From Escherichia coli (GTDB taxonomy: Bacteria > Pseudomonadota > Gammaproteobacteria > Enterobacterales > Enterobacteriaceae), in the NCBI RefSeq assembly GCF_003991155.1, contig NZ_CP031294.1: 64,000 bases of DNA; one strand, written 5' to 3'. Position numbers and translations under genes: made by a program. Of this stretch, positions 21,809-22,584 are shown in pieces. Positions within the stretch are counted from its first letter, which is position 1; each line of letters starts with the position of its first letter. Under the pieces are notes generated by a model. It was not told the origin of the DNA, did not search any database, and was given only the letters and a program-made list of their open reading frames with translations.

Positions 21809-22584
21809 AATTCAGCACTGCCAGTATTTATTACTCAACAGTGCCAATCGCGGCGGTGTTAGTTTCTGCCAGGAAACGCACCGCTACTTGCACTTTCCGT
21901 TAGTGCCAGACGTTTTCGACTTCGCTCAATAGAAGGCAAAATCTTTAAGTAGATGATGTTTCTGAGGACAGCACCTACTTTGTAATTTATACAATGCGAT
22001 GTATGGAATCATTTGTTGTGAAAACAGGCACCAATGGCAACAGTGGTTAAACCTACACAACAATCCTGTCTTCACAACGTTGAGGCCACTACTCCGATTG
22101 AATGTTTGCCCAACATGTTACATATCAACGCTCGCCGGTATCTCTGTGAATAGAACCTTAGAATTGATACAAATGTAATGGCCTCAACGTTGTGTGCTGG
22201 CTAACCATACCAGCCGGGCTACGTCGCCGCTTTTTAACCCAGTATAAACGACATAATTGAACAAAATGACGTAACAGGATGGGCGGTCAGTGGCTAAGAA
22301 TCCGGGAGTCATATGGAGTTGAAAATATACCAACCGCCCATTCTGTTACTTCATCGGAGGGAACATGAATGTTCCCTCCTGCGTTCTGCAATCACACTCG
22401 CTCAGTGTGTCCCATTTCGGTAACGAGGCTGGAAACTGACCTCGCTGGTGTTTGGCTTATTAGGCTACTGCCAGATAGACTTCTTCGTTTGCACTTGTAT
22501 TTAAGTTCAAACAGTCGCGTCTCAACGAAAACAAAGTCATCTTATACATAAAAGATAAGTAAATAAATACTTATCATTGTATTT

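Follow-up and report, generated by a model that had tools for sequence, protein, structure and literature searches.

A tmRNA-like message module without a tRNA-like half, with a segment complementary to host tmRNA, in front of the tRNA genes of an SSU5-type phage-plasmid

In a 64,000-nt stretch of Escherichia coli DNA (contig NZ_CP031294.1, in the following called the window), 776 nt without an evident gene (21809-22584) separate a protein-coding gene (22585-22875) from an array of tRNA genes (tRNA-Asn, tRNA-Tyr, tRNA-Thr and tRNA-Ser, 21251-21808, with a 224-nt structured insert between Thr and Ser), which raises the question what this gap encodes. The window belongs to an SSU5-family phage-plasmid and shows 99.9% identity to the E. 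coli plasmid NZ_OW849379.1, with unchanged coordinates. Since the gene and the tRNAs all lie on the minus strand, the gap is located upstream of the tRNAs in the direction of transcription. A preliminary description had proposed a large structured RNA, with a lytic origin, a packaging element or a decayed coding region as alternatives. Our computational analysis revealed a conserved structured RNA on the minus strand, containing a message module of the transfer-messenger RNA (tmRNA) type without the tRNA-like half, an antisense match to the host tmRNA, and a wide, unannotated spread. The tmRNA-like module with its tag frame and host-tmRNA antisense match, which occupies the 5' 150 nt and is common to many unrelated enterobacterial phages, had been missed. 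Unless stated otherwise, all features described here are on the minus strand.

The message module and its spread

Relatives of the locus were gathered using the 96-aa protein encoded upstream of the gap as anchor. In 68 of the 78 loci retrieved a tRNA-Asn follows the anchor gene, and the gap comprises about 730-790 nt even at 60% protein identity. In the annotated relatives Cyrano, SSU5 and pJN2-26 the gap measures 779, 748 and 755 nt, respectively, and contains no credible annotation. Over its full length the gap is homologous in 59 distinct relatives; it can be aligned end to end with 65-75% identity between clades, and the tRNA-Asn stands at a constant distance 3' of the RNA in each of the SSU5-type relatives. 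For the comparative analysis we used an alignment of 15 non-redundant SSU5-family gap sequences (A1). The 5' 170 nt of the RNA (about 22375-22545) are almost invariant in A1, although the flanking protein is just 60-80% identical. This is also the only part of the gap exhibiting blastn matches outside the family, namely in FelixO1-like phages, in HK620 and in the Klebsiella phage Carvaje. These matches are unannotated and lie on the strand of the adjoining tRNAs or of the late transcript.

Within this part, an A-rich single-stranded tract UUAAAUACAAGU (22493-22504) is located directly 5' of a GCA resume codon and resembles the AAAAAAUAGUC-GCA of E. coli tmRNA. The resume-consensus detector of ARAGORN picks the same tract at relaxed threshold. 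It is followed by the tag-like frame GCA AAC GAA GAA GUC UAU CUG GCA GUA GCC UAA UAA (22457-22492), which reads ANEEVYLAVA and two stop codons, compared to the tag ANDENYALAA of E. coli. Indels of 0, 1 or 2 nt among clades at the A-rich tract break any upstream frame, and there is therefore no conventional start codon. The tags of other clades are ANEDTYLAVA, ANEDAYLAVA and ANDNQYLAVA; HK620 and Carvaje both have ANEEMYLAVA, with synonymous differences between them, and Michonne has ANDNVFLAVA. In the N4-like phage FSL SP-076 the tag is ANDDVVLMSA, which likewise comprises 10 codons and stops within a stem loop. Furthermore, a pattern scan of IMG/VR yielded at least 120 stretches in at least 27 sequence clusters and many genomic contexts. 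Among the matches listed, 22 distinct tag sequences encode 11 peptides of the form AN[DE][EDNT]x[YF]LAVA, codon 6 is UAY or UUY throughout, variation occurs at every free third position, and the tag consistently comprises 10 codons, with its stop falling in the loop of the stem that follows. The mRNA-like part known from one-piece tmRNAs, i.e. a resume codon behind an A-rich tract and a short tag open reading frame (ORF) with its stop within helix 5, is thus present.

The stop codons are enclosed by a helix-5-like stem (22445-22474; CUGG...CCAG with an upper stem of the GCC/GGC type), followed by two structures resembling the tmRNA pseudoknots 2 and 3 (PK2, PK3). We parsed 87 distinct core sequences for these elements. 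The upper stem of helix 5 covaries (GCC:GGC, GCU:AGC, UAGC:GCUA), and in FSL SP-076 the stem is wholly rebuilt as CUGAU...AUCAG and GGCU/AGCC. PK2 (22410-22444) consists of the hairpin CGAGG-loop-CCUCG, whose loop sequence UUCCA pairs with a downstream UGGGA. The evidence for PK2 is a haplotype table of the 87 sequences, and not a run-length test of own versus cross pairing, in which G.U pairs were allowed: stems of the types CGAGG/CCUCG, CAAGG/CCUUG, UGAGG/CCUCA and CAGGG/CCCUG occur with the loop:partner pairs CCGA:UCGG, CCAG:CUGG, CCAA:UUGG, UUCCA:UGGGA/UGGAA and CUCCA:UGGAG, and no discordant combination was found among them. PK3 (22380-22409) is the hairpin CACACU-GAGCG-AGUGUG with a tail. 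Its stem types are CGCACU/GGUGUG, CACACU/AGUGUG, CGCAUU/GAUGUG, CGCAGU/GCUGUG, CGUACU/GGUAUG and CAGACU/AGUCUG, and the partner of the loop stands after AUUAAUAA. Loop and tail pair as GCCC:GGGC, GCCCUGA:UCAGGGC, GGCGGGAG:CUCCCGCC, GACGGGAG:CUCCCGUC or GCCCAC:GUGGGC in other lineages; in the window lineage this second stem is a weak 3 bp, GCG:CGC. Both pseudoknots are of the H-type, with concordant double changes in the 87 sequences. Judged by its sequence, the succession of helix 5, PK2 and PK3 after the tag is the architecture of a tmRNA message half.

The lambdoid-type core matches 692 of 50,697 GenBank phage records (about 1.4%), from phages of Salmonella, Escherichia, Klebsiella, Shigella, Citrobacter, Serratia, Enterobacter, Erwinia, Cronobacter and Aeromonas. 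The carriers comprise Vi01-like, FelixO1-like, N4-like, T1-like, Webervirus-like, P22-like/lambdoid and SSU5-type phages, and beneath the GenBank matches the annotation shows either no feature or a short "hypothetical protein". Among 5,426 RefSeq E. coli genomes, 257 (about 5% of complete genomes) contain the SSU5-type core, through SSU5-type plasmids, without annotation, and the core is likewise unannotated at 141 chromosomal prophage sites. In siphoviruses, the core and the tRNAs form a unit of their own with opposite orientation to the flanking structural genes. An earlier description of a tag-template phage RNA without tRNA-like half was not found in the literature searched. According to PMC11915505, the pipeline of the tmRNA database rejects truncated hits.

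The ssrA genes found beside prophages in the enterobacterial loci L212-L331 encode, in addition to ANDENYALAA, the host tags ANDNQYKALAA, ANDSQYESAAL..., ANDEQYALAA, ANDEKYALAA, ANDETYALAA and ANDESYALAA. Of these, ANDNQYKALAA is similar to ANDNQYLAVA, the phage tag of the Klebsiella/Yersinia-type plasmids, a sequence likeness that hints at the source lineage of the module.

Complementarity to host tmRNA instead of a tRNA-like half

The 5' end of the RNA carries an antisense domain (22509-22532) complementary to the host tmRNA, for which the E. coli ssrA gene of NC_000913.3 served as reference. In the window, one run, GUUUUCGUUG (22523-22532), complements tmRNA nt 95-104 (tag codons 2-5), and a second run, GCGACUGUUU (22509-22518), complements nt 82-91 (linker and the first two bases of the resume codon). 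These two 10-bp runs are adjacent and colinear and represent the longest ssrA complements in the whole 776-nt RNA; the calculated duplex energy is -26.3 kcal/mol versus -13.6 kcal/mol for the best pairing inside the RNA. The conserved 5' motif AGUUUUCGUC is perfectly complementary to ssrA nt 96-105 (tag codons 3-5). Altogether the target of the 5' domain extends over ssrA nt ~67-106, from the 3' strand of PK1 through the A-rich linker and the resume codon into codons 2-5. The lambdoid/siphovirus type forms about 33 bp over 36 nt, with -37.5 kcal/mol compared to -20.1 kcal/mol for the best partner in the same RNA. The duplex energies of other lineages with ssrA nt 67-106 are -31.9, -31.1, -29.6, -35.9 and -21.4 kcal/mol, those of the best partners inside the same RNA -12 to -26 kcal/mol across lineages. 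For the values from -26.3 to -37.5 kcal/mol the host duplex is in each case far better than the internal one. With a longer 5' segment (46 nt and -45.7 kcal/mol in the lambdoid type) four lineages beat 300 of 300 shuffles (z -3.3 to -5.3); the Felix-type antisense does not stand out against shuffles.

The lineages differ in sequence and register but address the same host segment, by GCGAC+UUUGC+GGCUUUUUA, by GCGRCUGUUUUU, by GCGAUUAU+GCGGUUUUUUA or by GCGUCUAUUUU. Substitutions in the antisense domain are mostly C>U and A>G, keeping the pairing as G.U. Compared to the RNA's own homologous region, which departs from the host sequence at about 13 of 38 positions, the host sequence is the better match for the domain. 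The host target is near-invariant among 120 enterobacterial tmRNA genes taken from prophage-flanking DNA, in agreement with the host range of the family. Extended conserved complementarity exceeding self-complementarity, as expected of an antisense RNA, was found in strong form in the lambdoid, siphovirus, Vi01-like and N4-like carriers and in modest form in the window lineage. We accept an antisense relationship because of this pattern across lineages, in which varied sequences and registers meet one host segment and changes preserve G.U pairing.

The antisense bases probably stand at the very beginning of the transcript. A predicted sigma-70 promoter (22539-22567) has the -35 box TTTATT (22562-22567), a 17-nt spacer and the -10 box TAAGAT (22539-22544), and transcription is predicted to start at about 22532, the G of GUUUUCG. 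A simple consensus promoter scan did not list this promoter, the -35 box being weak. In relatives the -35 box is TTTACT, and the hexamers are invariant or nearly so in A1. The same layout precedes GUUUUCG in Michonne (TTGACA-17-TAAGAT) and in the carrier L093 (TTTACC-17-TATAGT), so that the predicted start lies at, or 1 nt before, the G of this motif in three carrier types (Michonne, L093 and the window). The Klebsiella/Aeromonas siphoviruses have TTGACA-17-TAGATT and a start about 5 nt upstream of the G. Thus the predicted promoters put the antisense bases at or a few nt from the RNA 5' end in four carrier types. In an RNA-seq study of LF82/Cyrano, a tRNA-overlapping feature reached about 150 fragments per kilobase per million (FPKM), the four upstream genes 5-8 and the downstream gene 11 (PMC9928086). 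The Cyrano element is 98% identical to that of the window, and the roughly 20-fold higher expression of its tRNA locus compared to the upstream genes in these data (PMC9928086) is consistent with a promoter inside the gap.

An AT-rich hairpin, AUAAGUAUUUAYUUACUUAU (22555-22574), overlaps the predicted -35 box and lies directly behind the stop codon of the upstream gene. One of its pairs is changed from A-U to G-C in 6 of 15 relatives. The hairpin could be a regulatory operator or a transcript-end structure of the upstream operon.

The tRNA-like domain of a one-piece tmRNA (7-bp acceptor stem with G3.U70, T-arm, 3' CCA or a site for adding it) was not found. ARAGORN detected no tRNA-like domain in the window at its default setting or at 80-90% thresholds, and its only default call in 204 loci was a chimera of neighbouring tRNAs; a call at 70% was rejected as it placed implausible "domains" inside the upstream coding sequence. 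There was no tRNA or tmRNA-like match in the complete HK620 genome, and no separate acceptor piece, as known from two-piece tmRNAs, in the 64-kb window and the remaining 47 kb of the matching plasmid. The sole T-loop-like sequence in the gap belongs to tRNA-Asn. With a start at the G of GUUUUCG a 5' acceptor strand cannot be accommodated, and the RNA of FSL SP-076 has an intrinsic terminator about 115 nt behind PK3 and no T-arm. We also discarded an acceptor-like G3.U70 helix formed by strands of the flanking hairpin modules, as compensatory changes support the local hairpins (GAACAC/GUGUUC in Carvaje), and the downstream tRNA as missing half, as this neighbour varies (Asn, Arg, Ser or none) and would be removed by RNase P. 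A search of the window for an RNA complementary to the 5' domain gave nothing beyond chance.

The tmRNA models of Rfam align just to the resume/tag segment, far under threshold (10-30 bits compared to gathering scores of 47-84). The best tmRNA score in the window was 17.3 bits (beta_tmRNA, gathering 84), the best in any homologue 29.9 (tmRNA_permuted, gathering 47), in an alignment borrowing the T-arm of a tRNA-Ile. Permissive Rfam scans of 3 kb around the locus, the window, the homologous loci, HK620 and the rest of the plasmid detected only tRNAs and sub-threshold tmRNA fragments. The large phage RNAs GOLLD and ROOL, with which the gap had been compared in the preliminary description, gave no match at E<=10 over 3 kb or at E<=5 over 64 kb. 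Like GOLLD and ROOL, the RNA is phage-associated, adjoins tRNA genes and has no known protein product, but it lacks sequence or structure similarity to them in Rfam, its host clade differs, and its core has about 150 nt and is tmRNA-like.

Compared to known tmRNAs (SsrA; RF00023, permuted RF01849, RF01850, RF04321), the phage RNA shares the A-rich tract before GCA, a 10-codon tag of the proteobacterial type AN[DE]..[YF]...A, the stop in a helix-5-like loop and the H-type pseudoknots behind it. It differs by the missing acceptor stem, T-arm and CCA, by having two pseudoknots only, with PK1 not found, by a tag ending in LAVA instead of ALAA, and by a 5' end that is antisense to another tmRNA. 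The two-piece tmRNAs of alpha- and beta-proteobacteria and cyanobacteria, likewise built from two base-paired RNA chains, come closest to a precedent for a template carried on a chain of its own. However, their two chains derive from a single gene, the 5' acceptor strand remains on the coding piece, and the pairing involves the acceptor stem and helix 2, whereas the partner of the phage RNA would be the complete tmRNA of the host, paired at its message region.

Possible effects on ribosome rescue

The tmRNA-SmpB system is the main ribosome-rescue system of bacteria. The gap would represent the 5' part of a minus-strand unit consisting of the promoter, the tmRNA-like RNA of about 150 nt, about 580 nt of long hairpins, the four tRNAs and a terminator. 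The 5' RNA probably descends from the message half of a tmRNA, of which the A-rich tract, GCA, the 10-codon tag, helix 5 and two pseudoknots would have been kept. The alanine-accepting tRNA-like half would have been lost, and instead the extreme 5' end carries the segment antisense to host tmRNA around the resume codon. Going by the sequence evidence, we favour, tentatively and with less than full conviction, the view that the phage RNA docks on the host tmRNA and hides and/or replaces its tag template. The duplex, for which the complementarity is observed, would cover the host template in vivo. At the same time the RNA would offer its own, and stalled products may receive ...AN[DE]xx[YF]LAVA in place of ...ANDENYALAA. 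As a guess, the long downstream hairpins may be stems for RNase III and RNase P that free the RNA from the tRNA precursor. We prefer replacement of the template over mere inactivation because it alone explains the conserved frame, the resume context and the pseudoknots. In its most specific form, which we regard as rather doubtful, the RNA would anneal over the host linker, resume codon and first codons, and the host Ala-tmRNA/SmpB would append (A)AN[DE]xx[YF]LAVA templated in trans, changing the fate of the rescued proteins. If true, such tag swapping would be without earlier example in two respects: a virus would reprogram bacterial trans-translation, and a natural tmRNA template would be delivered on a foreign RNA of its own.

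Several points weigh against docking and template replacement. We infer the transcript, its pairing with tmRNA and the existence of LAVA-tagged proteins from sequence, and we know of no precedent for a template supplied in trans. A duplex of 20-33 bp might simply cause cleavage or blockage, and the roughly 580 nt downstream of PK3 are not explained functionally. The window lineage has just two 10-bp runs, equalled by 8 of 300 shuffles, and among about 150 further 30-nt segments of this RNA there are 7, several of them GC-rich, that equal or beat the antisense segment (RNAduplex). The complementarity of the window lineage is therefore modest, and the antisense case rests on the family. Part of the "conservation" of the tag in the pattern scan is by construction, as the search pattern prescribed the length of the tag and several of its codons. 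This bias does not affect the protein-anchored SSU5 set or FSL SP-076, and the latter indicates that the C-terminus of the peptide is not universal. The single-sequence folding energy is ordinary (z about -0.9 on both strands for the 148-nt 5' core, 22385-22532). Finally, an equivalent of PK1 was not found: just a short 5' stem GUUUU/GAAAC can be proposed, and the segment is instead antisense to the host tmRNA.

Alternatively it might be, although we consider this an outside chance of some weight, that the RNA acts as a pure antagonist, which pairs with the host tmRNA or soaks up its partners and only shuts down trans-translation, by RNase III cleavage or by occlusion of the resume codon, with its own tag left untranslated. 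The same antisense complementarity would serve this purpose, and an RNA duplex of 20-33 bp is a classic substrate of RNase III. There is a reported parallel: according to PMC11915505, which cites Mao et al. 2009, mycobacteriophage DS6A encodes a tmRNA variant without coding sequence that interferes with, and inhibits, the host tmRNA. Both are phage-borne partial tmRNAs, but going by that report DS6A is the mirror image, having kept the tRNA-like half and lost the tag, whereas the RNA described here has kept the tag half and lost the tRNA-like half. For antagonism alone an antisense RNA of 30-40 nt would do. The retention of the resume context, the 10-codon length, the stop in the helix-5 loop, the synonymous changes and two pseudoknots across distant phages would stay unexplained.

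It seems unlikely to us that the core is a relic or spacer, i.e. a degenerate tmRNA fragment carried along in mobile tRNA cassettes and acting only in cis, as a structured leader for processing, stability or spacing of the tRNA or late transcript, whose match to the host reflects ancestry or an old inverted duplication. Its constant position in tRNA operons or lambdoid late leaders, the exchangeable hairpin modules on its flanks, the ordinary folding energies and the statistically modest complementarity in the window lineage would agree with such an origin. A relic would however not be expected to stay near-invariant beside a protein of 60-80% identity or to show covarying pseudoknots. Furthermore, the antisense domain tracks the host sequence and not the RNA's own copy, the lineages arrive there by different sequences, and in FSL SP-076 and the siphoviruses the RNA has its own promoter or terminator.

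Phage RNAs acting on host RNAs are known. AgvB and AsxR of enterohaemorrhagic E. coli (EHEC) are prophage-encoded anti-sRNAs that base-pair with host non-coding RNA; they are short sponges of Hfq-dependent small RNAs (sRNAs), whereas the RNA described here targets tmRNA and carries a surrogate coding module. The stable RNAs C and D of phage T4 are small RNAs co-transcribed with phage tRNAs and freed by tRNA-processing enzymes. To our knowledge they have no sequence similarity to the present RNA, no tag frame and no reported complementarity to tmRNA.

The remaining gap, neighbouring features and implications

All inverted repeats named in the preliminary description were recovered at its coordinates: I4 (22073-22092/22175-22194, 20 nt, 95%), I2 (22266-22287/22333-22354, 22 nt, 91%), I11 (22356-22366/22369-22379, 11 nt, 100%) and, as the related arm beyond the tRNA array at 21171-21247, I3 (21171-21190/21229-21248, 20 nt, 95%). 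As the folding energies are ordinary, thermodynamic stability was dropped as evidence and comparative support for the helices was sought. In A1 (RNAalifold and pair count) 97.8% of the cells pair, compared to 34-46% with the partners slid; two-sided changes occur in 21 pairs versus 2-6 in the slid controls, and the covariation score was reached by 0 of 500 shuffles. The covariation check proposed earlier, run here on 15 relatives, thus supports the helices by two-sided changes.

Behind PK3 follows hairpin A (22356-22379), the 11-bp hairpin noticed before, in which 5 of 11 pairs are changed on both sides and 99.3% of the cells pair; it is deleted in one relative (L025). The long helix B (22265-22355), described as 17 bp and extended here to about 25 bp, has 98.6% pairing cells over its 25 pairs and a variable 45-nt loop. 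Hairpin C (22219-22256) is rich in G.U, and hairpin D (22196-22214; 6 bp, 7-nt loop) has one pair changed on both sides. In the long helix E (22073-22194), extended from 16 to 19-20 bp, 4 pairs are changed on both sides; its arms start with CACAAC and end with GUUGUG, enclosing a variable 82-nt loop, and a hairpin with these boundaries also stands behind PK3 in the lambdoid and siphovirus carriers. The 16-nt block AAUGAUUCCAUACAUC (21998-22013) is unchanged in 15 of 15 A1 relatives; no partner was found for it, and the surrounding stretch is variable. Towards the tRNAs, A1 shows a conserved block I with the hairpin GCAC-UAACGGAAA-GUGC (21881-21912) and pairs of helix J (21813-21886), which holds the two-tier hairpin described before. 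In this region (21813-21912; helices 16 and 17) 6 pairs are changed on both sides. The roughly 580 nt between PK3 and tRNA-Asn are specific to the SSU5 family and consist of covarying, near-perfect long helices with variable loops and two invariant blocks. A long-range helix between 22379-22385 and about 21897-21902 (A1 columns 201-207/711-716) was rejected, as its bases are invariant and the variant L055 lacks the partner strand, and pairings of the RNA with tRNA-Asn proposed by RNAalifold were treated as artefacts.

In minus-strand orientation G.U cells outnumber A.C cells by 48:4 in helix B, 12:1 in helix E, 55:0 in hairpin C and 36:5 in a fourth case, and the minus strand is therefore the RNA strand. 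The preliminary description had favoured a plus-strand RNA from a single G.T pair in the 17-bp helix (A.C on minus). This pair proved to be a clade-specific exception, and the tRNAs, too, are on the minus strand. The main proposal of the preliminary description, a structured RNA beside tRNA genes, is partly supported: the gap is non-coding, its helices are conserved as RNA, and it is linked to tRNA genes.

The same strand bias makes it very improbable that a DNA-level element, such as an origin of lytic replication, a packaging site or a palindrome bound by a protein, underlies the long inverted repeats in this non-coding stretch: an excess of G.U over A.C of about 10:1 on one strand has no explanation at the DNA level, the gap contains no direct-repeat iterons (the direct repeats found are tRNA-derived) and no change in skew, and wherever the core recurs in unrelated phages, in tRNA arrays and in late leaders, it is oriented with transcription. 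Equally remote is a hidden or decayed protein-coding sequence, for which a 26-aa ORF (MTLFSLRRDCLNLNTSANEEVYLAVA) and, on the plus strand, a 60-aa ORF (22369-22551) of the window are candidates, as other clades have lost the ATG and the frame in front of GCA by 1- and 2-nt indels, no antisense frame is open across lineages, ORFs vary in position and frame among relatives, and neither candidate matches any Pfam family. A conventional small ORF and an antisense protein gene were rejected on these grounds. In line with the earlier view that credible ORFs are absent, there is none longer than 60 aa in 21809-22584 and none conserved among relatives. The suspected decay does not apply: the supposed pseudo-start (MIPY) lies inside the invariant block at 21998-22013.

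Behind tRNA-Ser, the inverted-repeat scan detected a trailer hairpin (21171-21248; arms CACAGCGUUGAG...), and the terminator scan an intrinsic terminator 3' of the tRNA array (21077-21096). An ORF of 302 aa on the plus strand (20164-21072) is convergent on this terminator. It lies in a sharply AT-rich island (GC 0.26-0.33 versus about 0.45 around it), had no match in Pfam or PADLOC, and looks like a recently acquired accessory gene. The plasmid NZ_OW849379.1 also carries host-like genes (78418-81709, locus L207), namely a full-length metG (methionyl-tRNA synthetase), apbC and a type I restriction-modification system.

The 224-nt insert between tRNA-Ser and tRNA-Thr (21338-21561) contains the repeats CCGUUGUGGUGG/CCACCACAACGG (I9) and a 24-nt repeat of 83% (I1), and between close relatives the distance from Thr to Ser ranges from 8 nt to about 660 nt. 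Its module bounded by GUUGUGGUG...CACCACAAC stands before tRNA-Ser in Carvaje and behind the tmRNA-like core in HK620. Other exchangeable hairpin modules are bounded by GGUAAGRGCAUUG...CAGUGCUCUUUCC (L006 1919-1990; L209 about 870-940; flanks of L100/L181; L208 about 1530-1660). Some of them hold a perfect T-arm GGGUUCGARUCCC and look tRNA-like, but are called neither by ARAGORN nor by the tRNA model of Rfam, and a 125-nt module of Vi01 ends with ...AAACGGC-U-CCA, like the 3' end of a tRNA. Such modules could be degenerate tRNAs, processing cassettes or mobile units.

In three SSU5-type plasmids of E. coli (NZ_CP104844.1, NZ_JCBNXW010000003.1 and NZ_AP039430.1; H197, H198 and H229) the core match is split near query position 47 into two places per record, and a gene for a WbuC-family cupin is annotated under it. 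This suggests an insertion interrupting the RNA gene, possibly by a resistance-gene transposition unit. Several annotations in relatives are erroneous. CYRAN_40 (L001 2566-2778) is a "hypothetical protein" drawn over tRNA-Ser/Thr, and another one in the Aeromonas phage pIS4-A (L211 1285-1572) is drawn antisense over the tmRNA-like RNA; both are artefacts. The misnomer "C-type natriuretic protein" is attached to SSU5_048 (L002 3512-3817) and to numerous plasmid-borne copies of the 96-aa upstream protein.

At minimum, hundreds of genomes need annotation of a new RNA gene, and several overlying "hypothetical proteins" have to be removed. The carriers include model phages and phages relevant for therapy (FelixO1-like, Vi01-like, N4-like, T1-like and lambdoid). 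The wide spread together with the antisense match suggests that many enterobacterial phages tamper with ribosome rescue. If the RNA blocks or rewrites tagging, it would constitute a new layer of phage control over the translation quality control of the host, encoded beside the phage tRNAs.

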